From sequence record PZ324410.1: a stretch of DNA of 47,561 nucleotides; one strand, 5' to 3'. Origin of the DNA: a phage. Within the stretch, counting starts at the first letter, position 1; every line of letters begins with the position of its first letter. This document shows positions 21,537 to 47,561 of the stretch, piece after piece. The translations under genes were made by a program, and so were the position numbers. Below the pieces are notes generated by a model that saw only the letters and a list, made by a program, of their open reading frames with translations, was not told the DNA's origin and did no database searches.

Positions 21537-21537
21537 T

Positions 21538-23777: not shown

Positions 23778-23917
23778 ATCACCTTATCCTCATCAAAAAT
23801 CACACCAATCACACGAAGCAAGTCTTTCGCCATGCGCTCGGCTTCTTCGTAATCGTAACCTGCATCGACATACAAATCAGTGTAGAAAATCAGGTCTGCT
23901 TTTGTTTGTTCGTTCAC
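23774..23917 (-). CDS. hypothetical small protein
   Basis: hand-called 46-aa ORF with GTG start and GGTGAGGTGA RBS; TGA overlaps downstream ATG. Confidence 0.25.
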   Translation of the reverse strand: MNEQTKADLIFYTDLYVDAGYDYEEAERMAKDLLRVIGVIFDEDKVI

Positions 23918-23930
23918 AGTCTTTATCACC

Positions 23931-24203: not shown

Positions 24204-24274
24204 AAACGCCTCAATCTACATCAGCATAATGTTAATCTACACCACGGCGGCGCAACCTGTCAAATGATTGTGAG

Positions 24275-24757: not shown

Positions 24758-24834
24758 CTTAAAACCACCAATCAAGACAATTAAGATACAAATCTACATC
24801 ATATCTACACCATCATCAATTGGTTTTCTCTCTA

Positions 24835-24843
24835 ATGATATAA
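24835..24843 (+). promoter_or_regulatory. extended -10 promoter TGaTATAAT
   Basis: exact TGnTATAAT about 28 nt upstream of tail chaperone ATG, preceded by two atctac repeats. Confidence 0.4.
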
Positions 24844-24870
24844 TGACTCATTGCAAGATAGAGGCTTGTT

Positions 24871-27950: not shown

Positions 27951-28422
27951 TGGCTATCATCAAATACCCTGACTGGCTGCCACTCGCACAGCGCGCCAGC
28001 AAAAACCTTACTTTTCAAACCCCTTTCAGGAAGGATACCCCAGCCGTTGGGGCGCCGATATTTCAAAAATTAACGACTGACGTCGCAGTCACATGGAGCA
28101 TTACGTGGGTCTTTACACTGGAACAAGAGCGGGCTTTTATGCAGTGGTTAAGGAGTTCAAAATACCTCAACCACTGCAACAACTGGTTCACCATGATGAT
28201 TGACCTCGGCGGTAGTGGATTGCAGGAGCAGACGCTGCACTTTACCGATTACCCGGTGCAGACAAGCATTGATGGCGGCGTGGTTACGTGGACTGGCAAT
28301 GTCATCGCTAAAAAGCTCAATAACACGATGGATGAGTTTGATGATGTTCTGGTTGAGCTTGATTACAGATGGTATAGCTTCCTTGATGAAACTGTAAGCA
28401 GAGAACTGCCAGAACACAGCAA

Positions 28423-28426
<4 letters not shown>
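27950..28426 (+). CDS. minor tail protein (lambda M-like position)
   Basis: 158-aa ORF immediately after tape measure. Confidence 0.55.
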
Positions 28427-32548
<4,122 letters not shown>

Positions 32549-32587
32549 TACAATATACATCAAATTCACAAAGGAGCATTTATTATA

Positions 32588-34480
32588 ATGGCTACCACAC
32601 CAACCAATTTACCAATCCCGTCAGAAGACCCGCGCGATCTAAAATTTAACGCTGGTAAGTTTGATGAAGTCATGACGTCTGATGCGCATTACTACGTGGA
32701 CAGATTTGGCGTAAAACGCTGGACGATTGCAGGGTTTCAATTTACCGCAGAAGAGGCTATCCGTAACTATGGATACATCACAATGGATAGCTTCGAAGAT
32801 GGCGCGACGTTGACACTACCAAACCAAGTCCTGCGCTATGAAGCAACCGGAGAATATTACCGCTGGGACGGTGCATTTCCTAAAACTGTCGCTGCTGGTT
32901 CAACCCCAGCAACAACTGGCGGCGTTGGTTTAGGTGCATGGGTTAGCGTTGGTGATGCTTCTCTGCGGTCAAATTTAGCAGCATCTAATGGATATACTTT
33001 AGTTGGTGGCCTTGCTGAGCATTATAGCCTCCCTGTTAAGTTCGTTGTTGTTGATAACGCACCTTACAATGGCGATTTAAAAGCAGCACTAACAGCAGCA
33101 ACACCTGGTAGTGTTTTCTGGTTGGGCAAGAAAACGCATAACATTACTGGGCTATATGGTGTCAATAAAAATACCGTTGAGAATATTACTATCGTTGGGG
33201 CCGGAATGCCGCAACTATCATCTGATAAACGATATCTTATAGATGGGACTGGCACCATTATTCAAGGCACAATTAAAAATCAGGCAAGAGGCTTCAAGAT
33301 ATTTAATTGTGGTATAGACGTTGGTGATTATGTTTCTCAAAACGTTTATCCGACAGTTACTTATGAAGATGGCCTGCAGCATTACGGTGTTGGTGCAAAT
33401 GCAAACATTGAAATACATAACGTGAAAATTCTTAACACCGTGACAGACCCATCAAAACCAGGTACTCACAGCATTCTGCTTGAGCAATTATCCGGTGTAA
33501 CTTTGGGTTACGTTGAGTGCATTGGAGGATTTCACGGCCTGGCAATAAAATGCCAAAATCTGCAAGGTGGTCGTGCTCACTGCTATGGTCAGTACGGTGA
33601 TGCATTCATCATTAAATCAGATTCTGGTGGTGCATGTGCTGACATTCACATGGAAAGAATCACAGTTGGCCTTTATGACAACACCGGCTGGCCTGATGTC
33701 ACTATGGGCGGAATTTATGACGCTCATGATAACGTTACAATCGACAAAATTGGCATTGGTGAGTTAATTGTGCAAAACGCGTCATGGGGATTTATACCAT
33801 CTTATGCCAATACCGGTTTCATAACAAACGTCAGCATTGGTAGATACTCTGCATTCAATGTCTATGGGAACTATTATTCATTAACCATTGATAATAAATG
33901 TGTTGGTTGGACTATTGGTGAGCACAGAATTAGCAATGCATCTGGCGGCATTCGTGTTCACCCGGACTCTGCTGAGATAAATATAGGAACAGGATCGTCA
34001 AAAGGAAACACAAAAAGTGGTTATGCGCTAGGTGGTAACAGCCTCAGTCATGGGGTTCTGTTTGCTAACGAAAACGGTGAAGCGGGTGTGGAATATCTCG
34101 GTGGGTTAGGTTTTGATGCATCGCTTGTCCGTGGTTACGTGAACGGAACCGTTCTTGTATCAGGAATGCCGAGTGTGAAAGATGGTACACCCGTTAATGG
34201 ATGGGCTGATACTGGTGCATTTGATATGACTTTAACTGGTAAAACAGTGCGTATAACAGGTTCGTTAACCAGAGGTACAGCCGCTGTTGCATATAATACT
34301 ATCTCCGCATGTAGACCTTTAAAAAGAGTACCAGTACCAGCATGGGGTGTTAATGCATCAAGTACAATGGTTCCAGTAGAATGTTATATTGAAACCAACG
34401 GGCAGCTAAACATTTCAGGTTTTGCATCGATCCCAACAGGCGGGACAATTTATTTTAGCGGTGAATATTTAACTAAGTAA
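32588..34480 (+). CDS. tail fibre protein with conserved N-terminal anchor and AT-richer C-terminal region
   Basis: 630 aa; N-terminus MATTPTNLPIPSEDPRDLKFNAGKFDE typical of enterobacterial phage fibres; C-terminal two thirds of lower GC. Confidence 0.65.
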   Translation: MATTPTNLPIPSEDPRDLKFNAGKFDEVMTSDAHYYVDRFGVKRWTIAGFQFTAEEAIRNYGYITMDSFEDGATLTLPNQVLRYEATGEYYRWDGAFPKTVAAGSTPATTGGVGLGAWVSVGDASLRSNLAASNGYTLVGGLAEHYSLPVKFVVVDNAPYNGDLKAALTAATPGSVFWLGKKTHNITGLYGVNKNTVENITIVGAGMPQLSSDKRYLIDGTGTIIQGTIKNQARGFKIFNCGIDVGDYVSQNVYPTVTYEDGLQHYGVGANANIEIHNVKILNTVTDPSKPGTHSILLEQLSGVTLGYVECIGGFHGLAIKCQNLQGGRAHCYGQYGDAFIIKSDSGGACADIHMERITVGLYDNTGWPDVTMGGIYDAHDNVTIDKIGIGELIVQNASWGFIPSYANTGFITNVSIGRYSAFNVYGNYYSLTIDNKCVGWTIGEHRISNASGGIRVHPDSAEINIGTGSSKGNTKSGYALGGNSLSHGVLFANENGEAGVEYLGGLGFDASLVRGYVNGTVLVSGMPSVKDGTPVNGWADTGAFDMTLTGKTVRITGSLTRGTAAVAYNTISACRPLKRVPVPAWGVNASSTMVPVECYIETNGQLNISGFASIPTGGTIYFSGEYLTK

Positions 34481-34484
34481 CAAA

Positions 34485-34510
34485 AACCCCGCTTCGGCGG
34501 GGTTAGTTTT
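34485..34510. terminator. bidirectional rho-independent terminator
   Basis: aaccccgc ttcg gcggggtt hairpin then TTTTT. Confidence 0.65.
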
Positions 34511-34542
34511 TAGAAGTGGCTGATTGTAATCGGTGATGATGG

Positions 34543-34968
34543 CTAATTTTGTTTTGGATAATTCTTCGATCTCCAGTCGTTAAAAGCCATCATTGCTGCT
34601 TCCCATCCTAGCGCTACACACACTGTGCATCCGGCATTTAAAGATGCGGAAAGGTAATCAATCTGGCCTTCCTCCCAATCGCTAAGAGTGTGGTCTTTCC
34701 TCTTCATCTCAATAACAAGAGATGGATTTCCAGGGATTATTATATCTGACGCACCTTTATTTAAAGCGCCTTTCTTTTTTAGGTTGCTGACCTCATGTGC
34801 TTTTCTCTTTCCTTCGTTTGGAATGTGAAGCACCAGCCGACCAAAACTATCAGGATACATTTTCCTCAATTGATTTATAAAAGTTACAAGCTCAGCGTCT
34901 TCAACATGACACTTCTTGTCTCTGTATGTTTTATCTCCATATACCTTTAGCCATTCAGGAAAAATCAT
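34543..34968 (-). CDS. VRR-NUC domain nuclease
   Basis: PD-(D/E)xK-like core DIIIPG...VIEMKRK in 141-aa ORF trimmed to ATG 34968. Confidence 0.5.
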   Translation of the reverse strand: MIFPEWLKVYGDKTYRDKKCHVEDAELVTFINQLRKMYPDSFGRLVLHIPNEGKRKAHEVSNLKKKGALNKGASDIIIPGNPSLVIEMKRKDHTLSDWEEGQIDYLSASLNAGCTVCVALGWEAAMMAFNDWRSKNYPKQN

Positions 34969-36830
34969 AATACCCCCCAATACATGCCTTTAACGTTGAA
35001 ATATTTACTACCCTTATCTCTTCTGAACATAATCACTGATGGCGAGACAGCCTCATCTCTTTTAGATATTGCATCATCAATTGACATGTTATGTTCACCA
35101 AAGCACTTCTCACAAAATTCTTCCCACTCCTTCTTCATCCATTCCTTCTCAGAGTTTGGATTGTAGAACTTGCTAACAAAAAATGGTTTCTGTTCAATAG
35201 CAAATTTTACGTGCACCAAATCTTCACCGCTTGAAACGTAATGCTTCATGATGTTCATCATGGTTACACTTGATTGCTTGGTTGCATAAGGAGAAGAATC
35301 AAGCCTGTCAGCTTCTTCCTTTAGTTTTTGGTTGGGGTCAATAATTTCAGCTCCGCATGATGTGCAATTTCTTGCTGCTATATCATTTTCAAACCCACAA
35401 TCTGGACACTCCTTTACCGACCATTTATAAGTACACCTATGCATTTCCCTTAGTGGTCCATGCATAACGTAGTTTTTACACCGCCTACCAAAATGAGCAG
35501 GCATGGGCTTGCTTCCAATCTTTTCACCTGACTTATCAAAAATATCAATCATTACTCTGTCACCCGCCAAATCCAGCCAGTAACCTTCCTTGTCAACTTC
35601 AAGATTTTCAGGATTTGGGCGCACACCAAATTCATTAATAAAGCCACAAAGAGGGCATTTGACATCCATTGGCACGGATGGTTTTTTCCTTGTTGCTTTT
35701 ATTTCTGGAGTGAACAAGTCCCCGGTCTCAGAAAAGTGACGTTGAATATTGCCTGCGTAATCGCTGACAAGAAAGTCTTCCTTGCCTTCATAAAGACGCG
35801 TCCCCCTGCCAATTATTTGCTGGTATAGTCTTGGTGATTCTGTGGCTCTCATTACTGCTATGTGATCACAATGAGGAACATCCACCCCTACAGTAAGGAT
35901 ATTCTGATTGACGATGTATTTAACTTTTTGCGCCTTGAAGTCTGATATTGCCTTATTGCGTTCAGCTGTCGGCATATCACCAAAAACATAACTATAAGAA
36001 CCGGGAGGCAGTGACTCCATTATCTCCATAGCGTGTTTCTTTGTGCTGGCAAAAATCATCGTTCCGAGACGATTAACGGAGCGACGGATAATATCTTCAA
36101 CAATACGTGATGTCTTCCTTCCCTTGCCAACCATCGCCTTTTCAACTGAAGATGTTGTGTACCGACCCAACTTATCCTTTTCAAGACAAGACGTATCATA
36201 CTCGTCAAAAACAGGCTCTGTAACTGGCGGCGTAAGGTATCCGTTTTCAATGAGGAATTTCGCCTCAAGCTCATAAACGACTTTGTCGTAATATGGGTCT
36301 ATGGCTGTTTCTTCATCTGTAGGACCGTCGAGGTAATGCTCTTTGTAGATGTATCCAGTTCCAAGGCGATAAGGCGTAGCGGTCATTCCAATAACACGCA
36401 GTTTTGGATTGCGACGCTTCATTTCATTAATAATAAATTTAATGGTTGGTGTTATTCCATCGCACTCATCAATAATGACAGCACCATACTTATCACCAAA
36501 CATCTCTATTGAGTTCTTGATTGTAACTGGTGAACCAAACACCACCGGATGACGCAGGTTTTTTGGGCCAGCCTTTGCACTGAACATGCTGGCTGGTTCT
36601 CCGGTGAGAAGATATTTAGCGCGATTTTGTGTGACGAGTTCCGCCGTGGGAGCAATGCACAAAACTCGCTTTTTGCTCATGCCATAAATACGAGATGCAA
36701 GTTCTGCTACAACCATAGATTTTCCTGCACCTGTAGGTAGGATGATAACGCATGATGAGATTGTGCTGCGAATGTGTGCCATAGCTGAATCAACAGCTTC
36801 CTGTTGGTATGGCCTTAGTGTGTATTTCAT
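34965..36830 (-). CDS. SF2 DEAD/DEAH-box DNA helicase with C-terminal zinc fingers
   Basis: Walker A PTGAGKS, DECD box, MTATP motif, QIIGRGTR motif VI; Cys pairs near C-terminus. Confidence 0.8.
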   Translation of the reverse strand: MKYTLRPYQQEAVDSAMAHIRSTISSCVIILPTGAGKSMVVAELASRIYGMSKKRVLCIAPTAELVTQNRAKYLLTGEPASMFSAKAGPKNLRHPVVFGSPVTIKNSIEMFGDKYGAVIIDECDGITPTIKFIINEMKRRNPKLRVIGMTATPYRLGTGYIYKEHYLDGPTDEETAIDPYYDKVVYELEAKFLIENGYLTPPVTEPVFDEYDTSCLEKDKLGRYTTSSVEKAMVGKGRKTSRIVEDIIRRSVNRLGTMIFASTKKHAMEIMESLPPGSYSYVFGDMPTAERNKAISDFKAQKVKYIVNQNILTVGVDVPHCDHIAVMRATESPRLYQQIIGRGTRLYEGKEDFLVSDYAGNIQRHFSETGDLFTPEIKATRKKPSVPMDVKCPLCGFINEFGVRPNPENLEVDKEGYWLDLAGDRVMIDIFDKSGEKIGSKPMPAHFGRRCKNYVMHGPLREMHRCTYKWSVKECPDCGFENDIAARNCTSCGAEIIDPNQKLKEEADRLDSSPYATKQSSVTMMNIMKHYVSSGEDLVHVKFAIEQKPFFVSKFYNPNSEKEWMKKEWEEFCEKCFGEHNMSIDDAISKRDEAVSPSVIMFRRDKGSKYFNVKGMYWGVL

Positions 36831-37204
36831 AAGTCAAACTCCTTGCACCACTCGACAACATGCTCGCACTGCTTAACATCAAACATTCCTATGTGACACT
36901 TCTCTTTTCTTATTCCCATCGAACTAGCTAATGCAGAATAAGCAGAGCCTCTTGACATTTTTCCTGATTTCCATAAGGGATCAAATGCAGCATGGGCTTT
37001 GCTTTTTGCCTTTCTTAATTCTTCATTTGCCACACGCCCAAGAGGTCTTTTCCCATCACCATTTTTGTGGCAACCAACATAAGCACCACAAGAATCACAT
37101 AGATAAAAATTAAGAGACGAAAGGTCTGGTCTGTGTGGGTAAATTTCACTCCCTTTAGCTAGTCTTGTCGCAATATTGCAGTAATCACAGATAACTTCGT
37201 ACAT
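36827..37204 (-). CDS. zinc-finger protein
   Basis: CDYC and CDSC Cys pairs; ORF trimmed to ATG 37204 with GGGGG RBS. Confidence 0.5.
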   Translation of the reverse strand: MYEVICDYCNIATRLAKGSEIYPHRPDLSSLNFYLCDSCGAYVGCHKNGDGKRPLGRVANEELRKAKSKAHAAFDPLWKSGKMSRGSAYSALASSMGIRKEKCHIGMFDVKQCEHVVEWCKEFDL

Positions 37205-37261
37205 ATAAACCCCCAATTAAAAGCCCCTTAGCGGGGCTTTATTTAAATAAACATCAAGTCA

Positions 37262-37783
37262 TTAAAACGGCACGTCAGAGTCAAAGTCCATCGGAGGCTC
37301 GTTAGATGGCGCTGATTGCTTAGGAGCAGGCGCTGATTTTGTTTGTTGACGACTGAAAACACCAGCCACATAGTTACCAGTTTTTTGCTTATCCTCAGAT
37401 TCCCAAACGCGCAGAAGAAGGATCATCGGGCGATTAGCAAGCGCACTAGCAATAGCAAAATCAGTCGGCTCTTTCCCTGACGCCATCAGCTTGCCACCAG
37501 CGTTTGCGTCAATTGCTGCAAGCATAGTGATAGCATTGTCGCGCTGCTTTTCTTTTGAGCTAAATACTTTCAGCTTCTGGAAGATGATGCGATTTTTATA
37601 CTCACCATCAAGGATTCTCCACTTAAGATTGAAGAATCGCTCACCTTCCCACTGATCGTCTTTACACTCTTCAACGGCAGCAAGAACACGGCTGCCATCA
37701 GGAATTACTTCGAAACCACCACCCAGCTCAAATTCAGATTTAGATTCAACAGCTTTACCGTCAGAAAGATTCCAGAAACCCAT
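37262..37783 (-). CDS. putative ssDNA-binding protein with SSB-like acidic C-terminal tip
   Basis: C-terminus MDFDSDVPF resembles bacterial SSB tip DFDDDIPF; sits beside Gp157 and AAA_24 genes. Confidence 0.5.
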   Translation of the reverse strand: MGFWNLSDGKAVESKSEFELGGGFEVIPDGSRVLAAVEECKDDQWEGERFFNLKWRILDGEYKNRIIFQKLKVFSSKEKQRDNAITMLAAIDANAGGKLMASGKEPTDFAIASALANRPMILLLRVWESEDKQKTGNYVAGVFSRQQTKSAPAPKQSAPSNEPPMDFDSDVPF

Positions 37784-37800
37784 TTTTGTGTCCTCTCGAT

Positions 37801-38280
37801 TTATTTGATGATCAGTTTTGGCTTGCCATCTGTAATGGCACAACCCTTAATCTCAATCCCGGCTTTTATCGCATTTTTAATTGCTGCGTTATCTGCCGAC
37901 ACTTTCACAACGCGGTACTGCTCAGGAAGCTGTTCAACAGGGACAAACACATCAAGAACTGGTGATGGTTTTCCAAGCGTGATACTGAACAACTTACCTT
38001 TGATGTTTGTCTTTCCTGACGCCATCATGTTTTGACGAAGATAATCTTTAAGGTTATCAATCTTCGCAACTAAAACACGCTTACGCTCAGAAAGACGGTC
38101 AATCTCTGATTTAAGTCCAGCTTCATCAGCTTCAAGCTCACGAATGTAAGCAGCAACCATTTCAGCCTTTCCTTCAAACTCCTCTTCAATAAGATTGATG
38201 GTATCTTCAATCTGCTCCCGTGGAATATCCTCCATCGCCAGTAGTTCATTAAGCTGTTTGGTTATCTCGTAGAGATGCAT
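37801..38280 (-). CDS. Sipho_Gp157 family protein
   Basis: N-terminal MHLYEITKQLNEL and coiled-coil typical of Gp157; start uncertain. Confidence 0.55.
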   Translation of the reverse strand: MHLYEITKQLNELLAMEDIPREQIEDTINLIEEEFEGKAEMVAAYIRELEADEAGLKSEIDRLSERKRVLVAKIDNLKDYLRQNMMASGKTNIKGKLFSITLGKPSPVLDVFVPVEQLPEQYRVVKVSADNAAIKNAIKAGIEIKGCAITDGKPKLIIK

Positions 38281-39091
38281 AATATTTAATCTCACTCAAA
38301 AGTGGGTTCTCACCTTTTTCAAAAGGAATTTCAGGTTCAAGGTTGTATCTGTTTTTAGCATTAACATACCCAATACGACCATCACCAGAGGTGATAAGAA
38401 CTCGCTGACCAGTCTGAACAACCTTTCCAAACTTGGTGACTTGCCCTTTCTTATCAGTCTCAGTTCCTTTCACAAACTCTTCATTTCTGATGTAAATAAC
38501 AGCATCACTAAGATTCACATAACCAGAAACTGAAGCATCATGCATGTCAAGTGTGTAAACGGTGTATTCATCAGCATCAGGTCGATTCTTCATCTTTTTA
38601 ACACCTGCGTGTGCAAGATAAATAATGCTCATCCCTTTTTCTTTGCGAAGATACTTGCATGCATTTATTATTTCAGCGTGCATTTCAGAAACAACAATAT
38701 ATCCTTTGTTGTAACCACCAGCCGCAGAACCTACGTTGTCAACACCGTAATTTTCACAAACCTCATGCTCAAACATTGAATGCAGGCTTGTGATTGAGTC
38801 AATTACAAGCGTTTTGTAATTATGTTCCTCAGTAATTAATGCGCGTAGCTGTGACAGCAAATCATCCTTTGTGCTTGTTTTGCGTTTAGCGTCAGCGCGA
38901 TTCAGAACAGGAAATGAATCAGGTTTCTTTTCATCATCCCAGTCATCAAAAACACCAGTGATCTCTTCAGCCTGAATAAACACTGGGTTTGGGAATAGCG
39001 CCGCAAGAGTTGTCTTGCCTACACCTGGAGTACCAACCAATGTTATGATTGGTGCTGCTGGTTTTGGTTTTTGAATCATTGATAAGCTCAT
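38249..39091 (-). CDS. AAA_24 family ATPase (Sak4-like)
   Basis: Walker A GTPGVGKTT and Walker B-like VIDSITSL; GAGAGGACA RBS. Confidence 0.7.
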   Translation of the reverse strand: MSLSMIQKPKPAAPIITLVGTPGVGKTTLAALFPNPVFIQAEEITGVFDDWDDEKKPDSFPVLNRADAKRKTSTKDDLLSQLRALITEEHNYKTLVIDSITSLHSMFEHEVCENYGVDNVGSAAGGYNKGYIVVSEMHAEIINACKYLRKEKGMSIIYLAHAGVKKMKNRPDADEYTVYTLDMHDASVSGYVNLSDAVIYIRNEEFVKGTETDKKGQVTKFGKVVQTGQRVLITSGDGRIGYVNAKNRYNLEPEIPFEKGENPLLSEIKYYASLRDNQTA

Positions 39092-39225
39092 AGTGTCCTC
39101 TCGATTTAACTCAGCATATCGCTGGTGTGACTTAAAGATACGTCAACATGATGGTAAACGCAATAGCTTGACGCAAATTTTTTTTGAGTTCATTATTGCT
39201 GCATACAGATAGCAGAGGTAAACAC

Positions 39226-39468
39226 ATGAAAAGCATCGCAGAACAGATAAGAGAAATGGAACAGACGAAGTTGTCGGAGCTGATTGATTATGTTGGAGGG
39301 CAATCACAACTGGCAAGATTTCTTGGTGTGTCAAAACAGGCTGTCAATCAGTGGGTGTCAAGAGGAAGAATTAGTGCTACAGCAGCAATTGATGCCGAGG
39401 CGCTTACTGGTGGAGTTTTCAGAAAGGAAGATTTAAGGCCAGCTGTTACAAAATGGATTGTTAAATAA
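39226..39468 (+). CDS. Cro/YdaS-like HTH DNA-binding protein
   Basis: helix-turn-helix QSQLARFLGVSKQAVNQW; divergent from recombination operon; ORF trimmed to ATG 39226. Confidence 0.6.
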   Translation: MKSIAEQIREMEQTKLSELIDYVGGQSQLARFLGVSKQAVNQWVSRGRISATAAIDAEALTGGVFRKEDLRPAVTKWIVK

Positions 39469-39470
39469 TA

Positions 39471-39497
39471 AAGCCCGCGTTTGCGGGCTTTTTTTAA
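39471..39497. terminator. bidirectional rho-independent terminator
   Basis: aagcccgc gttt gcgggctt hairpin then TTTTTTT. Confidence 0.7.
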
Positions 39498-39889
39498 ACT
39501 CCTTTTGAGCTTAAGCTATCTTTATCACGCCTTCCGCTATACTCTTTGCTTACATCCTCGTACAAAACACCAAACGCCTTACAGAAATTAAATAGTGCGT
39601 CACCCGCAAACACTTCGCTTGGATGCCAGTTTCCGGATTTTCTTGCAACATCCCTGTACGATGCTGTCACTATACCTACATTGTTTTCATATTGTATTCG
39701 ACAAAACAGTACGTCATCATCAATGCAGATACCCATATTGCAGCGGAATACGGGCATTTTCCAGTAGTAAACCTCCATCAGGTGTTTCCCTGTCATCATG
39801 GATATTGCGTTATCATGTGCGCGCTCAGGATTTTCTGACTCAAAATAGTCATACAAACCCCTCATCACCAGATACTTGTAATTGATCAT
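39494..39889 (-). CDS. hypothetical protein
   Basis: 131-aa ORF, overlap-coupled to primase gene. Confidence 0.5.
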   Translation of the reverse strand: MINYKYLVMRGLYDYFESENPERAHDNAISMMTGKHLMEVYYWKMPVFRCNMGICIDDDVLFCRIQYENNVGIVTASYRDVARKSGNWHPSEVFAGDALFNFCKAFGVLYEDVSKEYSGRRDKDSLSSKGV

Positions 39890-42219
39890 ATCTCAACCTC
39901 ATCATTTGTTAATTTATAAATTATTACGTTGTGAGATGTTCTTTTTGCATTTTCATCAATGCAAATAATACCATCTGATAACAACTTCTCTACGCACCTC
40001 TCGACATCAGCACGTTTATACCCACCTTCTTTTGCCACCCCTCTAACCATTGCTGTTTTGGTCATTCCACGCTTCACATATTCTTTAACCATGGAGAAAA
40101 TACCTTCAATTCTTTCTTCCATAGCTTTAGACTTCGCTCCGGCGATACTGTCAGCACGCATCATCAGATCGCTTGTTGATTTAATTGTTAATGCTACCGC
40201 ATATCTCAAGTGCTCCATGGTTATGACACCAGTATCGCACGCAAGAATGCCAGCAATCTTTGCCACTTTTACAGCGCATCTGTTTATCAATGGATGATAA
40301 CCAGTACCGTTTTCTACATGCTTTCTTGCAACGGTTTTAATCCATGAGAAGAACTCCTTAGCGAGCTGAGAAACTTCAGGAGTAGCTTTTATAATCCGTC
40401 TTTCTTTTTGACTGATTATTGAGTCTGTCCAGTTTTTGTGCCCAGCGGTTCCGCCATTTATTATTGTTTTTATGGTCAGTTGCATATCCATTGGCAGATC
40501 GCAGTAGTTGACGTTTTCGTTTTCGTCAGCAATCTCCTGCAACTCCTGCATAATCATTGCGCGCCCCATAAGACCTGACTTAATGTTTTCTTCAGTAATA
40601 AGGCGCTTAAACTGATCATCAGTAGACACGCCAAAGATTGAAAAAAATGGATTCCTTATAGCTCCATCAATTCTGTTTATCACATCATCAAACTGACACT
40701 TAATGTCAACAGGGTCTGCCTGTATCTCATTTTCCTCAATAGCCATCAACAGCATAGCCTTTCTCTTTTCGAAAGACTTAATGAAATCCTCAGTAACCCG
40801 CTGGTCACAATAAAGAACTTCTGACGTGTAAGCCTCCATGATCGCACCAGCGGTTGCCATGTTGTACTCGCTTACTTTCTGACCAACAACACTACCAAGT
40901 TTTATCCCAATCTCATCCATGATGATATTAAACATCTGGTTAGCACAAAGACCTTCATATATCGCACGCTCTGAACGTATCTTACCGGCGACAGTCTTAC
41001 TCAATCCTGAGCAATCAATTATCTTTTGTAGCGCAGCAAGAACATCACCCTTACCTGAACCTGAACCAGCGATACCAACAGCAAAAAGGTTTGGCAAAGC
41101 CTTCCTGTTTGTAAGGTAAATATCAGATGACGCTCCGCAAATCATGGATGCGGCATGCAATGCGGCAAGTGCTGCAATGTTCTCTCGCTTCTCTGCACAG
41201 TTCTTATTAATCCACGCCGTAAGGCGACCAACAAATCCAGGCGGATAACGGACATCAACACTTTTGTACTCTACAGGGCATTCACCAACACCCATTGCCA
41301 TCTCTCGCTCGAAAGACTCAAGTTTCTCAATTTCCTCTGGAGTAGCCTCAAAAGTTACTTGCCTTACCCACCCTCCCTCTTGCGCGAGATAAACCAGCGT
41401 TGCTTCGGTTATCTTTTCGCTAACACCGTCCTTTCCAAAGGAATGCCATTTTGCGTCCATCTCTTCAGCTCTGTACTTGCTGAACTGCGATGACCACCTA
41501 TCCCAAAGCTCAAAACCATTGCCTTCTGTAGCTTCGTGGATAGCCATACCTACATGAAGCCATGGGTCATACTCATCACCATCTTTGATGTATTTGAGCA
41601 TATCCTCCATTTCGGAAATGCTGTAATTTTTACTATCAAGCGTGAAAACCTCGTCTTCCGTTCTCTCAGGACGCAACAAAAGCTCAATAAGTTCAGATGG
41701 ACATTCAGTTATCTCTGAAGGGGATCCATGCTCGGCCTCATAAAAGTTTCCAGTTTTATGAAAAGAACCACATCCAACAACAAAACCAGAGGATTTAAAG
41801 TCAATACCCTTAAACCTTCTGTCATGAGAGCGCAGCTTTATTCCTTCAGGAAGTTTGTAATAGATGTGGCGACCACCACCACCAGTCTTAACCGTAAAAC
41901 CAGCTTCGTCAGCAAGCTCTACGTCTAAGGCATCACAAAGCGATTCATATCCATCATTACCTCCGTTGCGTGGATCAATATCAACGACCAGATAACCATT
42001 CACAAGGACACCGAATGACTGCAGTTGACCATATTCAGCCATATTTTCAATCTGGTCATCAGCCCATATAACTCCAAGCTGCCAGTTACTCATAACCGGA
42101 TGCTTACCGGCAGCATTGCAATCTGGATCACCGCATGTGCAATTGCGGTCGATATCCATTGCATGGATTCCAATAATAGGGAAGCCACATTTGCGGTAAT
42201 CTTCATAACCAATCATCAT
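39886..42219 (-). CDS. DNA primase/helicase (Prim-Pol N-terminal domain plus P-loop NTPase)
   Basis: N-terminal Prim-Pol-like region with acidic DIDPRNGG motif; Walker A GIAGSGSGKG in central region. Confidence 0.7.
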   Translation of the reverse strand: MMIGYEDYRKCGFPIIGIHAMDIDRNCTCGDPDCNAAGKHPVMSNWQLGVIWADDQIENMAEYGQLQSFGVLVNGYLVVDIDPRNGGNDGYESLCDALDVELADEAGFTVKTGGGGRHIYYKLPEGIKLRSHDRRFKGIDFKSSGFVVGCGSFHKTGNFYEAEHGSPSEITECPSELIELLLRPERTEDEVFTLDSKNYSISEMEDMLKYIKDGDEYDPWLHVGMAIHEATEGNGFELWDRWSSQFSKYRAEEMDAKWHSFGKDGVSEKITEATLVYLAQEGGWVRQVTFEATPEEIEKLESFEREMAMGVGECPVEYKSVDVRYPPGFVGRLTAWINKNCAEKRENIAALAALHAASMICGASSDIYLTNRKALPNLFAVGIAGSGSGKGDVLAALQKIIDCSGLSKTVAGKIRSERAIYEGLCANQMFNIIMDEIGIKLGSVVGQKVSEYNMATAGAIMEAYTSEVLYCDQRVTEDFIKSFEKRKAMLLMAIEENEIQADPVDIKCQFDDVINRIDGAIRNPFFSIFGVSTDDQFKRLITEENIKSGLMGRAMIMQELQEIADENENVNYCDLPMDMQLTIKTIINGGTAGHKNWTDSIISQKERRIIKATPEVSQLAKEFFSWIKTVARKHVENGTGYHPLINRCAVKVAKIAGILACDTGVITMEHLRYAVALTIKSTSDLMMRADSIAGAKSKAMEERIEGIFSMVKEYVKRGMTKTAMVRGVAKEGGYKRADVERCVEKLLSDGIICIDENAKRTSHNVIIYKLTNDEVEI

Positions 42220-42653
42220 TTAACCCTCACCACATAAGCGGTATTACGTGCAACCATCTTGACACTGAATTTTTTTTGCAGCTTCTTACCAACCACGGAA
42301 AGCGCACTTCTCAACTGCTCAATACTCCTTATCAACGCAAAATCATCAAACACAAAATGCTTTCCCTTACCCAAACCAAGTCGGTAGACGAAGTTGCGAG
42401 CCTCTCCCTCCATTGTCGGTTTTTGCTCCCACACAGACGCGGCCCGTTTTTTTACCCTTTGCTCCTTGCATTTTATTTCACACGGGAGATGCGGCTTCCG
42501 CCACGCCATATACCTCTCAGCCTCCTCTATTGTTTTGAAAAACTTTGCATAGGTAAAATCATGCAGAAAACCACATCTACCGCTGGCATATACCTTTTTA
42601 CCATCAGCCCCAATTGCCTCAATGTAGTACCTTTTCATATCCCAACACCTCAC
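42216..42653 (-). CDS. hypothetical protein
   Basis: 145-aa basic ORF, coupled. Confidence 0.5.
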   Translation of the reverse strand: MRCWDMKRYYIEAIGADGKKVYASGRCGFLHDFTYAKFFKTIEEAERYMAWRKPHLPCEIKCKEQRVKKRAASVWEQKPTMEGEARNFVYRLGLGKGKHFVFDDFALIRSIEQLRSALSVVGKKLQKKFSVKMVARNTAYVVRVK

Positions 42654-42877
42654 TTAATCCGCTTAACCCACAAACCACCCTCCTTAGCTCGTGTTTTAAA
42701 CATCCATCCGTTCCGCACTGCAACCTTATGAAGGTTCACTCTGAATCCCCTTAATCCTTCATTAGCGGTAAACTCATCAAAGTTAAACTCCTTACGATCA
42801 CCAACCAACATATCACGCACGAAATCCCAGACCTCACCAATCGCACTGCCAAATCGGTATTCTTTACTCATCGTCAT
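42650..42877 (-). CDS. hypothetical protein
   Basis: 75-aa ORF, first gene after repeat-rich region. Confidence 0.5.
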   Translation of the reverse strand: MTMSKEYRFGSAIGEVWDFVRDMLVGDRKEFNFDEFTANEGLRGFRVNLHKVAVRNGWMFKTRAKEGGLWVKRIK

Positions 42878-43039
42878 TTATCCCCTTTTTGTTTGGTAAA
42901 AAAAGAATAAAGGTAAAAAGTAAGTTAGTCAAACACATTCACACGGGAATGATTTTTGCTCCGTGTGGGTGGTTGACAGCACACCACAACAGGAGTATAA
43001 CGCTTTCCAGAGGGGCGATTTTTCTTTTATTTTCAATAA

Positions 43040-43275
43040 CTTCGCTTCCAATGGTTAAGATTAGCTCGGGAAGCGGAAATACAGAAAAATCAATGGTTTA
43101 AGTTGTCGCTTCCCAACTTCCCGCTCCCAAGTAAGATTTTCGAAAAAAATTGAGAGTTTTAAAATTCAAAAATTATTTTTCTGGGAAGCGGGAGGCGACA
43201 CAAAAAACACTCAGAAGCGACTGAAAACAAAGAAAAAAATGCTTCCAGGAAATTCAAGGAAGCGCGGGAAGCCAA
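43040..43275. repeat. cluster of GGAAGCG / CGCTTCC iteron-like repeats
   Basis: copies at 43043, 43069, 43109, 43185, 43258 plus variants gcgggaa/gaagcga, both orientations, interleaved with A-tracts. Confidence 0.7.
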
Positions 43276-43304
43276 AAAAAAACTAAAAACCACTAAAAAA
43301 TAAC

Positions 43305-43440
43305 CAGCTAAATTGCTGGTTTTCGTGTTTCTGTAGCTTAAGGTATTAATATCTATAATAAATATAAAGAAGATCTCAATATACTTTATATAGTTAATAA
43401 ACAAAGTTTACTATTAGTAATGTATGTAACTATATATGTT
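43305..43440. other. hairpin plus about 110-bp strongly AT-rich tract (possible DNA unwinding element)
   Basis: ccagc taaatt gctgg hairpin then region dominated by ta/at repeats (tatataaat, tatatag). Confidence 0.4.
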
Positions 43441-43487
43441 AGCTAGCGTACACTAACATTTGGTCGTGTTTTTTCTTTCTCTGTATA

Positions 43488-43516
43488 TTGACGTAGAATC
43501 ACAACTGATATAGATT
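43488..43516 (+). promoter_or_regulatory. sigma70-like promoter TTGACG-N17-TAGATT
   Basis: hexamers with 17-nt spacer about 30 nt upstream of first plus-strand gene. Confidence 0.5.
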
Positions 43517-43546
43517 GAAATCATCGAAACAAGCGAGGGTGAAGAG

Positions 43547-43693
43547 ATGAAAATCAAAGACCGTGAAGAATTTGAAGATGCGCAGGCTATGGCACGCATT
43601 GCAGTTGAGCGCACAAACAACAGCATTCCTGCCGAAGTATTCTGGAACGCTGAAATGCAGGCCTTAATCTCTGCGTATGGGTTAAGCAAATGA
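43547..43693 (+). CDS. hypothetical small protein
   Basis: 48-aa hand-called ORF; GAGGGTGAAGAG RBS. Confidence 0.4.
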   Translation: MKIKDREEFEDAQAMARIAVERTNNSIPAEVFWNAEMQALISAYGLSK

Positions 43694-43785
43694 CAGGCGC
43701 AACACTCGAACTTATCGCCAGCCTGGTTATCGTGGCGTTCATCATCATCGCAGTGGCAGTTTCTAAATCAGGGTATAGGGAGTAA
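43690..43785 (+). CDS. small membrane peptide
   Basis: 31-aa hydrophobic ORF; ATGA overlap. Confidence 0.25.
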   Translation: MTGATLELIASLVIVAFIIIAVAVSKSGYRE

Positions 43786-43873
43786 CAAAATGAGCAACTG
43801 GCATAACGAACACATCATGCAGTGGTATCGCCGTCGCATTAAGGCAATCATTAACTCTTATGAGGTTTAACAA

Positions 43874-44074
43874 ATGGCAAAGACTATCTATCTTCGCGAA
43901 AAACTGGAACAGGAGCTTGGACACGTTGGCGCGCAGAACTTTATGAGCAGGCAGGTGGAGCGAGCAGTGAAGTCTGCACGATGCTCGAAGGTGTGCCGTG
44001 TATGGCACAAAGATGGTGATAAACGCGTGCTGGACGAGGTAATTATATCTGGACAGGCAAACCATCAGCTTTGA
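43874..44074 (+). CDS. hypothetical protein
   Basis: 66-aa ORF from ORF track. Confidence 0.45.
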   Translation: MAKTIYLREKLEQELGHVGAQNFMSRQVERAVKSARCSKVCRVWHKDGDKRVLDEVIISGQANHQL

Positions 44075-44122
44075 TGTGTTTTATTGAACTGCAAACGATT
44101 CAGCTATGTACATGGTGATGAT

Positions 44123-44326
44123 ATGAGTGAGTTGGTTATCAAGAGTTGCCCGTTTTGTGGTGGCGAGCCAAAGGTTAAACCATGGCGTTCATATGACCAT
44201 GAGAAACCATACTTCCTGATTCGATGCTCATGCGGGGCTAGAATGACAAACTTCAGGGAGTCTGCAGAGCAGGCAATTGCCGACTGGAATCGCAGGGTTA
44301 ATGTTGATTTATATGGCAAAAGTTAA
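44123..44326 (+). CDS. Lar-family restriction alleviation protein
   Basis: KSCPFCGG...CSCGAR...AEQAIADWNRR, the canonical Lar family pattern; ORF trimmed to ATG 44123. Confidence 0.7.
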   Translation: MSELVIKSCPFCGGEPKVKPWRSYDHEKPYFLIRCSCGARMTNFRESAEQAIADWNRRVNVDLYGKS

Positions 44327-44546
44327 AACATACGAGTTCTGGTTTGTGCGGAACGCAATGTATGCGTGCAAGACAATCAAGCGAGCGCGCTGGTGGAATA
44401 AGTGGTTAATCCTGTCTGGCTGCATTGTGCTGGCAAAGTGCAAATTCAAAGCGATTGACATCACAGATGAGGATGCGCTCAAAATCGCAAAGATTGAGTT
44501 TGAAGAAGATGGTTATTACGAAGAAATTATGGGGGTTAGGGTATGA
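44301..44546 (+). CDS. hypothetical protein
   Basis: ORF 44277..44546 trimmed to first ATG; start uncertain. Confidence 0.4.
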   Translation: MLIYMAKVKTYEFWFVRNAMYACKTIKRARWWNKWLILSGCIVLAKCKFKAIDITDEDALKIAKIEFEEDGYYEEIMGVRV

Positions 44547-45025
44547 GTGAAGTTAAGCGTTATGACCTTGTTGGCGATATGGATGGAAATTGCAACCTTA
44601 ACGAAGCCAGAATGGAACTGTCGGATGATGGTGTTTACGTAAAGCACAATGACTACGCGGCACTCGAAGCCAAATGCACGGCGCTGGCGGCGGAGAATTC
44701 TGGGCTGAAGTCTGGTGCAATCAAGGCCATAGAGGATATTCAATGCTTCTACGATTCGGAAGCCTGGCACGTATCCGAAGATGGGGAAAGCGAGACGGCC
44801 GTTGTTGCACTGGATGATGCAAAAGGTAGTGTTGAGCACTTCGTGCTGAATGTCAAAACCCCGGCTACCTACGCTTCCCTGGCTGAAATTGAACGCAAGG
44901 CAATCCGCAAGTTCATTAACAGCATTGAGCACATCCTGCGTGACAAGTTGTCACCGTATGACACCGAAGAGGTGCTTGAGGCCATGCGTATTTTTCTGGA
45001 AGAACAGGGAGGTGAGCAAAAATGA
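44543..45025 (+). CDS. hypothetical acidic protein
   Basis: 160 aa, about 20 percent Asp/Glu; GGGGGTTAGGG RBS. Confidence 0.5.
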   Translation: MSEVKRYDLVGDMDGNCNLNEARMELSDDGVYVKHNDYAALEAKCTALAAENSGLKSGAIKAIEDIQCFYDSEAWHVSEDGESETAVVALDDAKGSVEHFVLNVKTPATYASLAEIERKAIRKFINSIEHILRDKLSPYDTEEVLEAMRIFLEEQGGEQK

Positions 45026-45318
45026 CAATCACAAAACAACAGGTAGAAGAACAACGCGGAACAGTAAAGGCAAAAACATATTCAGTTCCAAGAATTGCAA
45101 TTCCTCATCCTCCTGATGGTGATGGATATTATGTCAATGTTGTTGAGCTTACTGACTACATGGCATGCCTCAACAGAATTACAGAAATGAGCATTGAGAA
45201 TTATCATATGAAAAATCGAATTGCAGAACTGGAGTCCGCATTGAATCGCCATTATGAGCTCCCTGACGTTTATGATATGGCGATAAAGCAATTCGAAAGC
45301 CTGGCTAAAAGTGAATAG
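45022..45318 (+). CDS. hypothetical protein
   Basis: 98-aa ORF; GGGAGGTGAGC RBS. Confidence 0.5.
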   Translation: MTITKQQVEEQRGTVKAKTYSVPRIAIPHPPDGDGYYVNVVELTDYMACLNRITEMSIENYHMKNRIAELESALNRHYELPDVYDMAIKQFESLAKSE

Positions 45319-45381
45319 CTACCAGTTCATGTTAATTATCAGTGCGCTCTGTGTGGCGCACGCTTTGTGGGAGGAATACAT

Positions 45382-45489
45382 ATGACCAGACACCAACGAC
45401 GCCGCTACACCACTGGCGCTAAAATCTTTCTTGCCGTGTATGTGCTGGCACTGGTGGCAGCTATTGCTGGAGTGGTGCATTATGTTTAA
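45382..45489 (+). CDS. small membrane peptide
   Basis: 35-aa hand-called ORF; GGGAGGAATACAT RBS. Confidence 0.3.
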   Translation: MTRHQRRRYTTGAKIFLAVYVLALVAAIAGVVHYV

Positions 45490-45802
45490 TCAATTATCTG
45501 AGTTTTATAAGGCATATTCCGACTGGATTGATGCTGGAGCACCAGAAAGTGAACCATTCAGTAGAATGGTTGGTCTTTGTGGGTGTGTGTGTTTATATCT
45601 CAGGAGCAAAGACTGCAACTCCCATGTAAGGGAATCGGTGCTCTTGTTAATGCGAAAACAATTCATTAAGGCCGGTCTTGATCTCGATTACCCATTTAAC
45701 AACCAAGATAACTCATACTATGTGGAATCCATCGATGGATTGATTCACACCAACAAGTCTCGCATAGCATGGGTTAAAAAGGAGTGGCAACATTATGTTT
45801 AA
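45482..45802 (+). CDS. hypothetical protein
   Basis: ORF 45431..45802 trimmed to ATG 45482. Confidence 0.45.
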   Translation: MFNQLSEFYKAYSDWIDAGAPESEPFSRMVGLCGCVCLYLRSKDCNSHVRESVLLLMRKQFIKAGLDLDYPFNNQDNSYYVESIDGLIHTNKSRIAWVKKEWQHYV

Positions 45803-45974
45803 CGACATTAGCGACGCAATGCAAAACATGTGGGAACGCTACTGGGACAGCATGAAGACATGCCACTACATGATGGTGCAGATAGGTAATTACATTGAGG
45901 TTGTTCCTGACAATGGTGTTCACGATATTAAGTGCATGTGCTCTACGAGGGCTTTTGCAAATGCAAACAACTAA
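45795..45974 (+). CDS. hypothetical small Cys-containing protein
   Basis: 59-aa hand-called ORF overlapping neighbours. Confidence 0.3.
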   Translation: MFNDISDAMQNMWERYWDSMKTCHYMMVQIGNYIEVVPDNGVHDIKCMCSTRAFANANN

Positions 45975-46162
45975 ACAGAAAGTTTGGGAGGCAGCAAAAA
46001 ACGAGGGGGTGGATAGGTTTATATCAATGATTGCGAAGCACTTCCCCGGCGCAATAGATGTTGTCCATATTAAATCACCACACCGCGACGTATGGTGCAA
46101 AGCAAAATAAACTATTTACATGATACCGTATAAAGGGTATCATAATTCAACGAGGTGCAAAA

Positions 46163-46297
46163 ATGATTTGTCAAACATGTGGTAAGGAACTTCTTCCTGG
46201 ATGCCGTAAGGATAAGAAGTATTGCTCTCCTTATTGCAAGTTAAAAGCCACGAGGAGGAGAAATGCTGACAGAAAACAGAGAGTTCAAGTGGGATGA
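46163..46297 (+). CDS. small zinc-ribbon-like protein
   Basis: 44-aa hand-called ORF with CQTCG and CSPYC; overlaps HNH start by 35 nt. Confidence 0.25.
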   Translation: MICQTCGKELLPGCRKDKKYCSPYCKLKATRRRNADRKQRVQVG

Positions 46298-46766
46298 TGT
46301 ATTTGATTATAGCGATGGGGTGCTGTCGTGGAAAATTAAGCCTTGCAAGAACATGAAAAAATCATCTCCAGCTGGAACAATGAGAAACGATGGTTACTTG
46401 CAAGTAAGATTCATGAACAAGATACATTTGATTCATAGGATTGTATGGGAAATGTTTAACGGCGAGATACCTGATGGTATGCAGATAGACCACATCAACC
46501 ACGACAGGAGTGACAACAGAATTCAAAACTTAAGGATGGTTACTAAAATATCAAACGGTAGAAATTTGACCAAGAAAACAAATAACACTAGTGGTGTTAC
46601 TGGCGTCTCATGGTACAAAAGCCGGGGGAAGTGGAGGGTGCAAATAATGGTTGACAGAAAAAGTATACACATTGGGTATTTTAGTGATTTTGAATCAGCT
46701 GTTGCCGCAAGGATTTCTGCTAATGAAAGGTATGGGTTCCACAAAAATCACGGAGTGAATTGTTGA
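46263..46766 (+). CDS. HNH homing endonuclease (HNH + AP2-like)
   Basis: LIHRIVWEMFNGEIPDGMQIDHINHDRSDNRIQNLR and GVTGVSWYK motifs; AGGAGGAG RBS. Confidence 0.7.
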   Translation: MLTENREFKWDDVFDYSDGVLSWKIKPCKNMKKSSPAGTMRNDGYLQVRFMNKIHLIHRIVWEMFNGEIPDGMQIDHINHDRSDNRIQNLRMVTKISNGRNLTKKTNNTSGVTGVSWYKSRGKWRVQIMVDRKSIHIGYFSDFESAVAARISANERYGFHKNHGVNC

Positions 46767-46908
46767 ATTAATCCCCTGATGCGCTTGAAATCGTTCATGT
46801 GCAGACGAGAACAGAAAACGCATGGTGCTATGCTGGCAAGCGTGATAACGATGGTGTACAATAAACGTATAACCACCTTGCTTTCACTCACATCATCACC
46901 CAACACTT

Positions 46909-46936
46909 AACCCGCCTTGTGCGGGTTCTTTTTTTG
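46909..46936 (+). terminator. rho-independent terminator
   Basis: aacccgc cttgt gcgggtt hairpin then TTTTTTT. Confidence 0.65.
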
Positions 46937-46939
46937 CCA

Positions 46940-46969
46940 TTAACGCCATGGTGTAGAATCTGTTACAAT
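46940..46969 (+). promoter_or_regulatory. sigma70-like promoter TTAACG-N18-TACAAT upstream of terS
   Basis: hexamers read directly; contains gtagaatc variant of the recurring motif. Confidence 0.35.
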
Positions 46970-47006
46970 ATCGAATAACGAAAAAAAAGCGGAATATTGA
47001 TAGGTT

Positions 47007-47432
47007 TTGTCTATGGCTAAAAAGCTATTCAGTAAAGAAAATCAACCACAAAACAAACGCGGGAAAGACAAGCGCAAGTTGCTCGTTGAAGCCCTTGAGA
47101 GAAAGGGGTTTAGTGAGGAAAAACTCTATGACACCATCGTTGAGATGGCGATGATTGAACGTGACACGGCGATGATGAAGGAACTTATCGTTCGATTCAG
47201 CCCGCTACCTAAACCAGTTGCCCCGGTGTTTGAGGTGGACTTCCCTGATGACGGAACTCCGGTACAGAAGATTGATGCCGTTATTCGTGGCATAGCTGCT
47301 GGTGTTATACCTGTGGACATTGGAAAGACATTTGCCGAGGTTATCAGGACAGGACTGGATATTGCCGAAGTTACCGAACTCGCCGCACGCCTTGAGCGAC
47401 TGGAGAAATTACTGGAGCAGCAGAATGCGTGA
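47007..47432 (+). CDS. terS: terminase small subunit (putative)
   Basis: 141 aa, basic N-terminus, coiled-coil C-terminus, directly upstream of terL across the circular junction. Confidence 0.5.
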   Translation: MSMAKKLFSKENQPQNKRGKDKRKLLVEALERKGFSEEKLYDTIVEMAMIERDTAMMKELIVRFSPLPKPVAPVFEVDFPDDGTPVQKIDAVIRGIAAGVIPVDIGKTFAEVIRTGLDIAEVTELAARLERLEKLLEQQNA

Positions 47433-47561
47433 TTTCATTTACTTTGTCTGCGGGTGCTTATGGATGCCAGCCTATGCAAATGCCGACACATTAATTAAAC
47501 AGGCTGCCTGCTGGCTTGTGGTTTTGGTTCTTGCTATTTATTCAGTATTCAGGGGTCGTTA
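47425..47561 (+). CDS. small hydrophobic protein, 3' end runs off the window
   Basis: ORF MRDFIYFVCGCLWMP... continues to last base; final ta plus window base 1 (a) would form TAA overlapping terL ATG. Confidence 0.35.
   Translation, partial: MRDFIYFVCGCLWMPAYANADTLIKQAACWLVVLVLAIYSVFRGR

Follow-up and report, generated by a model that had tools for sequence, protein, structure and literature searches.

Organization of the packaging region at the ends of the record

The window analyzed here is the whole phage sequence of record PZ324410.1, 47,561 nt in length. It opens at the start codon of the large terminase gene, terL, and closes within a small open reading frame (ORF) that is preceded by a 139-aa ORF in the position of a small terminase gene (the terS-position gene). 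The genes and signals of this region, in the order in which they follow one another when the two ends are joined, are listed below.

46263–46766, forward strand: homing-type endonuclease with HNH_3 and AP2 domains, assigned by Pfam and PHROG
46909–46927, forward strand: terminator-like hairpin with a T-run, from a consensus scan only
46940–46969, forward strand: promoter-like site with an extended −10 element, from a consensus scan only
47013–47432, forward strand: putative small terminase of 139 aa, named from its position and size
47425–47561, forward strand: first 137 nt of a small ORF of 45 codons, the TAA of which is completed by base 1
1–1425, forward strand: terL, large terminase subunit of 474 aa, assigned by Pfam and PHROG, at the ATG of which the record is opened
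1431–1450, unstranded: bidirectional terminator-like hairpin that closes the unit of terS-position gene, small ORF and terL

The TerL protein carries the Pfam domains Terminase_3 (E = 6e-35) and Terminase_3C (E = 1e-12) and matches several PHROG families of terminase large subunits. An AGGGG motif is found 6 nt before its ATG at base 1, and its N-terminus, MARKRLSALAIEKLE, is kept from residue 1 in the related phages KlebP_265 and STGO-35-1. At the opposite end of the record, the ATG at 47425 opens a frame that is free of stops to the last base of the window; its 137 nt comprise 45 codons and the two bases TA. Base 1 is an A, and joining the end to the start completes a TAA codon that overlaps the ATG at 1–3 (TAATG). 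The joined ends read ...GGGGTCGTTAATGGCTCG..., with the TAA of the small ORF sharing its last A with the terL ATG. The original prediction that the last ORF reaches the final base, and that its TA and base 1 make a stop over the start of terL, is confirmed from the window sequence. Upstream, the TGA of the 139-aa ORF overlaps the ATG of the small ORF (ATGCGTGA), and a GGAG motif lies 7 nt before that ATG. The product of the small ORF is MRDFIYFVCGCLWMPAYANADTLIKQAACWLVVLVLAIYSVFRGR, followed by the stop.

The terminator-like hairpin and the promoter-like site precede the terS-position gene, and terminators are annotated in phage Skate at both homologous places, namely before the packaging operon and directly after terL. 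A packaging operon is therefore likely, as read from these sequence signals, to start in the 46909–46969 region and to run across the end of the window into terL. Together, the signals at 46909–46969 and at 1431–1450 indicate that the window boundary cuts a single transcription unit. The ATGCGTGA and TAATG overlaps would in addition couple the terS-position gene, the small ORF and terL into one translational unit; as the record boundary cuts this unit, the small ORF looks as if it continued past the last base. The HNH endonuclease gene lies upstream of the operon, with the terminator-like hairpin between them.

An independent assembly contains the end-to-start join

The TAATG closure on its own is weak evidence for a continuous map and would be no great surprise as a chance event, given that an in-frame dinucleotide followed by an A makes a stop codon in about 1 case out of 8. 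What raises it above chance is external evidence from a second assembly. An exact-protein lookup of TerL returned two GenBank assemblies only. The assembly OR845258.1, of Escherichia phage ECO95 1-6-1, is an unannotated SPAdes contig (NODE_2) of 47,511 bp. We took the last 700 and the first 700 bases of the window, in that order, as a junction query of 1400 nt, and this query matches OR845258.1 at 100% identity in a single piece, at internal positions 10519–11918 on the minus strand. At least 16 further, more distant relatives keep a collinear order across the junction; a search of IMG/VR for the exact end-to-start junction gave no match.

Whole-genome BLAST comparison of the window with OR845258.1 resolved the two assemblies into three segments, each of them 100% identical with no mismatch or gap. 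The segments, and the point at which the second assembly was opened, are as follows.

Segment 1: window 1–11218, corresponding to OR845258.1 11218–1
Segment 2: window 11142–31224, corresponding to OR845258.1 47511–27429
Segment 3: window 31225–47561, corresponding to OR845258.1 27555–11219
Window 11142–11218, unstranded: opening point of OR845258.1, its 77-bp terminal overlap, located by the whole-genome comparison

The first 77 bases of OR845258.1 are the same as its last 77, which makes it a self-closing contig with a unit length of 47,434 bp. The window exceeds this unit by exactly 127 bp (47,561 − (47,511 − 77) = 127). Two assemblies with unrelated cuts and opposite orientations, each holding the ends of the other internally, together describe a circular map. 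ECO95 1-6-1 is identical to the window across the whole 47,434-bp unit and contains the window's end-to-start junction internally; it differs in its reverse orientation, in its opening at window positions 11142–11218, in having no second copy of a 127-bp sequence described below, and in having an intact tail gene.

These data bear directly on the possibility that the genome is linear, with one true physical end at the start codon of terL and the other lying 2 nt short of the stop of the small ORF. The record is presented as a linear sequence, and a search for direct or inverted terminal repeats of 5–399 nt found none at the window's own ends. Against such ends, the join is contiguous at 100% identity within OR845258.1 and collinear in the relatives mentioned above, and ends at these positions would break up an operon whose genes are translationally coupled, one base short of a stop codon. 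The exact placement of base 1 on the terL ATG is, moreover, a signature of re-orientation by software, a convention described for Salmonella phage vB_Se_STGO-35-1 (MW477799) of the same siphovirus cluster, the record of which was re-oriented to terL by its authors (PMC8954984). The single-piece match of the join in OR845258.1 effectively refutes linear physical ends, to which we assign a negligible probability. A composition profile and a tRNA scan gave nothing special at the window boundaries. Some records of relatives begin at terL, some at the terS-position gene and others at arbitrary points, on either strand; the field has settled on no common physical end for these phages. The window is a circular map cut at terL; the earlier suggestion that the assembly had been circularized and rotated to this gene is supported, with the join intact in OR845258.1 and base 1 being the A of the terL ATG.

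A perfect 127-bp tandem duplication within the tail gene

The 127 bp by which the window exceeds the unit of ECO95 1-6-1 correspond to an internal tandem duplication, which lies within a gene for a J-like tail protein.

31098–31224, forward strand: copy 1 of a perfect 127-bp tandem duplication
31225–31351, forward strand: copy 2 of the same duplication
29935–32548, forward strand: J-like tail protein gene, split into ORFs 29935–31383 and 31244–32548

The two copies are identical, and the identity at period 127 ends exactly at 31098 and 31351. Both copies map onto the same 127 bases of OR845258.1 (27429–27555). In all 25 relatives listed, the matched span is 127 nt shorter than the query, indicating one copy in each, and the copy-to-copy junction GACGGACAAAC|TCCCGGCACAT was absent from IMG/VR. 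Because 127 is not divisible by 3, the tail gene is frameshifted and split; the two half-ORFs match the phrog_469 profile at positions 3–502 and 469–895. Deleting one of the 127-bp copies restores a single ORF of 828 aa, the length of the tail protein of Skate (30382–32868). The original prediction had treated the duplication as an artefact, and the single copy in ECO95 1-6-1 and in the 25 listed relatives, together with the restored ORF, strongly supports this.

A k-mer of 127 is a standard maximum in assemblers (SPAdes defaults), and tools for the re-orientation of phage genomes leave overlaps untrimmed. The numbers suggest that the original contig would have consisted of window positions 31225–47561 followed by positions 1–31224, with a 127-bp terminal overlap produced at k = 127. 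This contig would then have been rotated, presumably by a re-orientation tool, so that base 1 became the A of the terL ATG, and the overlap would have been kept. Rotation before trimming accounts for an overlap that is now internal to a gene, and the untrimmed overlap would in turn give rise to both the perfect tandem duplication and the false frameshift in the J-like tail gene. Identical 77-bp ends have been described in SPAdes contigs of permuted phages (PMC9409062). The present case resembles these de Bruijn terminal overlaps in that the same sequence of k-mer length would have stood at both contig ends of a presumably permuted phage and needs trimming. It differs in its length of 127 bp and in its location, as a tandem repeat within a gene and away from the ends of the record. 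Taken together, these results make it very probable that the window is a complete short-read circular assembly rotated to terL, in which the 127-bp overlap was left untrimmed, and that the true unit is 47,434 bp.

Two other origins of the repeat were weighed. Completeness tools read terminal repeats of contigs as direct terminal repeats (DTRs), and the 127-bp repeat might accordingly be a genuine DTR, with physical ends at 31098 and 31351, that was made internal by rotation; an assembly at k = 77 would collapse a real DTR of 127 bp and thus offers no evidence against one. Such a DTR would, however, coincide in length with a standard maximum assembler k-mer and would fall midway along an essential tail gene of 828 aa, and we know of no phage with short DTR ends inside such a tail gene. 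The same phenomenon is seen in OR845258.1 with 77 bp at an unrelated site, PhageTerm analyses of relatives gave headful or permuted genomes, and TerL is like the terminases of headful phages. We regard a genuine DTR as very unlikely.

Phage genomes do acquire tandem duplications, and the sequence alone does not forbid one. The duplication might instead be real in the sequenced population and mark a defective or variant tail gene. This sits badly with its effect, which is to frameshift a J-like tail tip protein that is intact at 828 aa in both Skate and ECO95 1-6-1; a plaque-forming stock would hardly be fixed for a frameshifted tail tip. The copies are also perfectly identical, the duplication is absent from all other records compared, and subtraction of 127 from 47,561 gives exactly the independently obtained unit length. 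A real duplication is for these reasons highly implausible, and the untrimmed assembler overlap remains the preferred reading.

Placement among relatives and curation of the record

The phage is a virulent Skatevirus-like siphovirus of enterobacteria, identical in sequence to ECO95 1-6-1. It belongs to a cluster of mosaic 45–48-kb enterobacterial siphoviruses around Skatevirus, Caminolopintovirus and Macdonaldcampvirus; the wider cluster has been named Skatevirus and relatives (PMC11990801). Matches at 80–96% identity were obtained to 130–280 records of this Skatevirus-like cluster, and gene order and the structural, packaging and replication modules are held in common with it, as seen in long collinear high-scoring segment pairs with Skate. 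The best named relatives cover 52–61% of the first 25 kb at approximately 90% identity. In a BLASTN comparison of the window, collapsed to a single 127-bp copy, with Skate, 52% of bases aligned at 86% identity; the resulting overall value of about 45% falls short of the approximately 70% or more genome-wide that defines the strict genus Skatevirus.

Salmonella phage STGO-35-1 is a close parallel for the layout of the record: it too is a circular record, in which the ORF between the terS-position gene and terL is joined across the origin (47348..11) and overlaps the start of terL. It differs from the window in having an unrelated 48-aa ORF at this place, in having no internal duplication and in belonging to Caminolopintovirus. 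Both STGO-35-1 and KlebP_265, the two relatives with published PhageTerm analyses, carry another TerL allele, which is only 61% identical to that of the window at the amino acid level. The Macdonaldcampvirus phages Vi II-E1 (E1) and SB28, as well as KE08, have a 45-aa ORF in the same slot as the window and terL genes of approximately 88–91% nucleotide identity; E1 is a circular record opened at the start of its terS-position gene. In contrast to these similarities, the terS-position genes of E1, SB28 and KE08 diverge from that of the window except at the 3' end, with matches starting at position 506 of the junction query (window 47367).

Circular maps, opening at terL, ORFs that cross the origin, headful packaging in this group and assembler overlaps at contig ends are all already documented, and the biology of this phage is as expected for its group, with nothing new. 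The main value of the analysis lies in curation. On the map the true genome is a 47,434-bp circle, and the record should be corrected by removal of one 127-bp copy (31225–31351), by fusion of the tail ORFs 29935–31383 and 31244–32548 into a single gene for an 828-aa J-like protein, and by annotation of the 45-codon ORF as a feature that spans the origin. If the duplication is left in, later users will inherit a tail gene with a spurious frameshift and a tandem repeat that is not real, and the genome length used for taxonomy will be inflated. Pipeline artefacts of this kind can be recognized where a record starts exactly at terL and contains a perfect internal tandem repeat as long as an assembler k-mer.

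The 139-aa protein in the terS position

The original prediction placed terS immediately upstream of the last ORF. An ORF of suitable size does adjoin the small ORF there, and this part of the claim stands; its identity as terS is read from position and size only. The 139-aa gene sits directly upstream of the terL region in all relatives examined. Its region is 94.5% identical to STGO-35-1 at the nucleotide level, and the protein is 54% identical in KlebP_265, the authors of which likewise identified no TerS (PMC11769527). A Pfam search with the 139-aa protein at E values up to 10 returned noise only, and its sole PHROG match is phrog_9747, a family of unknown function. Approximately 150 homologues were found in a search of 5.8 billion proteins, all of them unannotated and without Pfam domains. 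A phmmer search against the PDB gave nothing meaningful, no similarity to solved small terminases was detectable, and alignment with Sf6 gp1 by hhalign gave a probability of 0.1%. An AlphaFold2 model built on an alignment of 20 sequences is all-helical (pLDDT 75, pTM 0.35), and comparison of this fold gave no match. The size, helical build and fixed place of the protein are consistent with a putative small terminase, an assignment made from its position.

A variable slot between the terS-position gene and terL

The order of terS-position gene, variable slot and terL was found in gmqsjt-1, LPST10, BS5, E1, SB28, KE08, Bas78, Skate and KlebP_265. Nucleotide similarity to many relatives ends at approximately window position 47421–47433 and resumes in terL, so that the slot separates terS-position genes of about 90% identity from TerL alleles that differ by up to 39%. 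Its contents in relatives that do not share the 45-aa ORF of the window are given below.

gmqsjt-1: no ORF; the terS-position gene and terL overlap
LPST10, Skate and KFS-SE2: HNH homing endonuclease
BS5 and Bas78: unrelated 52-aa hydrophobic ORF
STGO-35-1: unrelated 48-aa hydrophilic ORF

The 45-aa product of the window is hydrophobic, with a predicted transmembrane-like segment toward the C-terminus (residues ~26–42). The slot holds an equally long ORF with identical start and stop overlaps, at approximately 89–91% amino acid identity, in SB28 (annotated as gp02), in Vi II-E1 (unannotated) and in KE08. In all four phages, every other reading frame across the slot is interrupted by stop codons. 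Compared with each of the three others, the ORF of the window has only 8–10 substitutions, at a synonymous to non-synonymous ratio of about 1:1, numbers too small for an estimate of dN/dS.

Variation of this kind is typical phage mosaicism and is not surprising. With five different contents in close relatives, the slot may be a recombination or cassette hotspot and a point of switching between TerL alleles. We tentatively raise the further idea, which we consider possible and somewhat doubtful, that the coupled membrane-like peptides are real accessory genes and that the 139-aa protein represents a new small-terminase family able to serve either TerL allele. If this were true, the slot peptides would ride on terminase expression, for example for exclusion or host interaction.

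Packaging mode

Closure of an assembly into a circle does not by itself prove permutation, as phages with direct terminal repeats, and sometimes cos phages, also assemble as circles. The mode of packaging was therefore considered from TerL and from published data on relatives. When TerL was compared by sequence with all solved structures, only two matches were returned, the ATPase domain of Sf6 gp2 (E = 1e-33) and the nuclease domain of SPP1 G2P (E = 4e-8). BLASTP against gp2 of Shigella phage Sf6 gave 36% identity over 223 residues of the ATPase domain. At the level of sequence, these matches suggest an affinity of TerL with the terminases of headful phages. The window thus resembles the headful systems of Sf6, P22 and SPP1 in both domains of TerL. 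It further resembles them in an assembly that closes into a circle and, like Sf6 with its gp1, in placing a gene for some 140 aa just before the terL region; it differs in that the 139-aa protein has no sequence or profile similarity to Sf6 gp1 and in the extra small ORF between the two genes.

For STGO-35-1, PhageTerm indicated headful packaging and a permuted, terminally redundant genome (PMC8954984), and for KlebP_265 it found no termini, which was read as a terminally redundant and completely permuted genome (PMC11769527). One of the two PhageTerm libraries was Nextera-based, and in that paper library preparation is named as a weakness of the method (PMC8954984). No termini data are reported in the announcement of Skate, in the papers on ZK22, KFSST1 and PSH-1 or in the BASEL paper. 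The most likely explanation for the closure of the assembly would be that virion DNA is circularly permuted and terminally redundant and is packaged by a headful (pac) mechanism through the Sf6/SPP1-like TerL. Headful packaging had originally been put forward on the fit of the circular map. The likeness of TerL to the Sf6 and SPP1 enzymes and the PhageTerm results on the two relatives, whose TerL is only 61% identical, point the same way and make it probable, as a conclusion by analogy that is weaker than first stated.

Packaging from fixed ends, through a cos site or a longer DTR, would also be compatible with a circular assembly, as closure could stem from concatemer-derived reads or from a collapsed repeat. 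In such a genome the HNH protein might aid cos cleavage, as in HK97-like phages; an HNH gene lies just upstream of the packaging operon in the window, and LPST10, Skate and KFS-SE2 have one in the slot before terL. Its HNH_3 and AP2 domains are, however, of the homing type, and the presence and place of HNH genes vary among relatives, with five scattered across the genome of Skate. The only relatives of TerL in the structural database are the headful enzymes of Sf6 and SPP1, and PhageTerm on STGO-35-1 and KlebP_265 gave permutation and not cos or DTR ends. Fixed-end packaging is thus unlikely, and headful packaging is preferred.

The HNH gene was also considered in its own right as an HK97-like cos accessory and was rejected in this role, being of the homing type, set off from the packaging operon by a terminator-like hairpin, and variably placed among relatives. 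An HK97-type cos system would be expected to combine a fixed HNH gene beside the terminase with a cos-type TerL; the matches of TerL here are to the Sf6 and SPP1 enzymes, both from headful phages. TerL is in addition approximately 25% identical to the TerL proteins of the staphylococcal phages 80alpha and phi11, which we take to be pac phages.

A variable cassette slot at the terminase genes

The interval between the gene in the terS position and terL is a cassette slot, the content of which varies among relatives of this phage. Some of these relatives lack a slot ORF; others carry either a homing endonuclease of the HNH kind or a small ORF of one of three types. The small ORFs are mutually unrelated (45 aa and hydrophobic, 52 aa and hydrophobic, 48 aa and hydrophilic), and all are coupled to their flanking genes by overlaps.

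Slot contents in the window and its relatives
47425-47561 plus base 1, window: 45-aa hydrophobic ORF
855-1013, relative L005: slot content
1106-1264, relative L009: slot content
47348..11, Salmonella phage STGO-35-1 (records L015/L014): small ORF
2163-2675, relative L003: slot content

The slot is also a breakpoint of mosaicism, as seen on comparison of window positions 47013-47432 and 1-1425 with STGO-35-1 (L014) and a second relative, L004. The terS-position gene region shares 94.5% nucleotide identity with that of STGO-35-1, while the TerL proteins share just 61% amino-acid identity. Near-identical upstream genes precede either of two circulating TerL alleles, a pattern that agrees with reported terminase exchange (PMC11769527).

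Salmonella phage S.Kent 1-2-1 (OR850880.1 and OR850971.1), which is 100% identical to the window, is assembled in pieces. Its contigs break shortly before the slot and overlap each other by 77 nt, equivalent to window 47345-47421. This break looks like a branch in the assembly graph, the source of which was perhaps co-occurring variants that differ in slot contents.

Genes upstream of the slot

The conserved 139-aa protein encoded in the terS position (47013-47432) is a member of a family that had no annotation in Pfam, PHROGs, the PDB or a large protein database; its PHROG match is phrog_9747, of unknown function. The protein is predicted to fold entirely into helices, three of which make up the N-terminal part, and a long one forms the C-terminus. 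This protein may represent a small-terminase family that is so far undescribed.

A further gene lies directly upstream of the packaging operon:
46263-46766: homing-type endonuclease with HNH_3 and AP2 domains

Similar genes occupy differing positions in the relatives, with five in Skate.

A tandem duplication in the tail gene

A perfect 127-bp tandem duplication at 31098-31351 frameshifts the gene for a J-like tail protein (ORFs 29935-31383 and 31244-32548); collapsing the copies restores a single 828-aa ORF. The second copy was found neither in the identical Escherichia phage ECO95 1-6-1 nor in any of the 25 relatives listed. We read the duplication as a probable contig overlap of k=127 left untrimmed.

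Placement and tRNA

When ECO95 1-6-1 and the S.Kent 1-2-1 contigs are set aside, overall nucleotide similarity of the whole window to the best named relatives, including Skate (L016), is only about 45-55%. This phage may represent a formally unnamed species, and possibly even a lineage of genus rank.

A single tRNA was predicted by ARAGORN:
21538-21614, minus strand: tRNA-Met, anticodon CAT

The identity of this predicted tRNA may be either Met or lysidine-modified Ile. Skate carries a tRNA at a similar genome position (22095-22171), which is annotated as tRNA-Ile.
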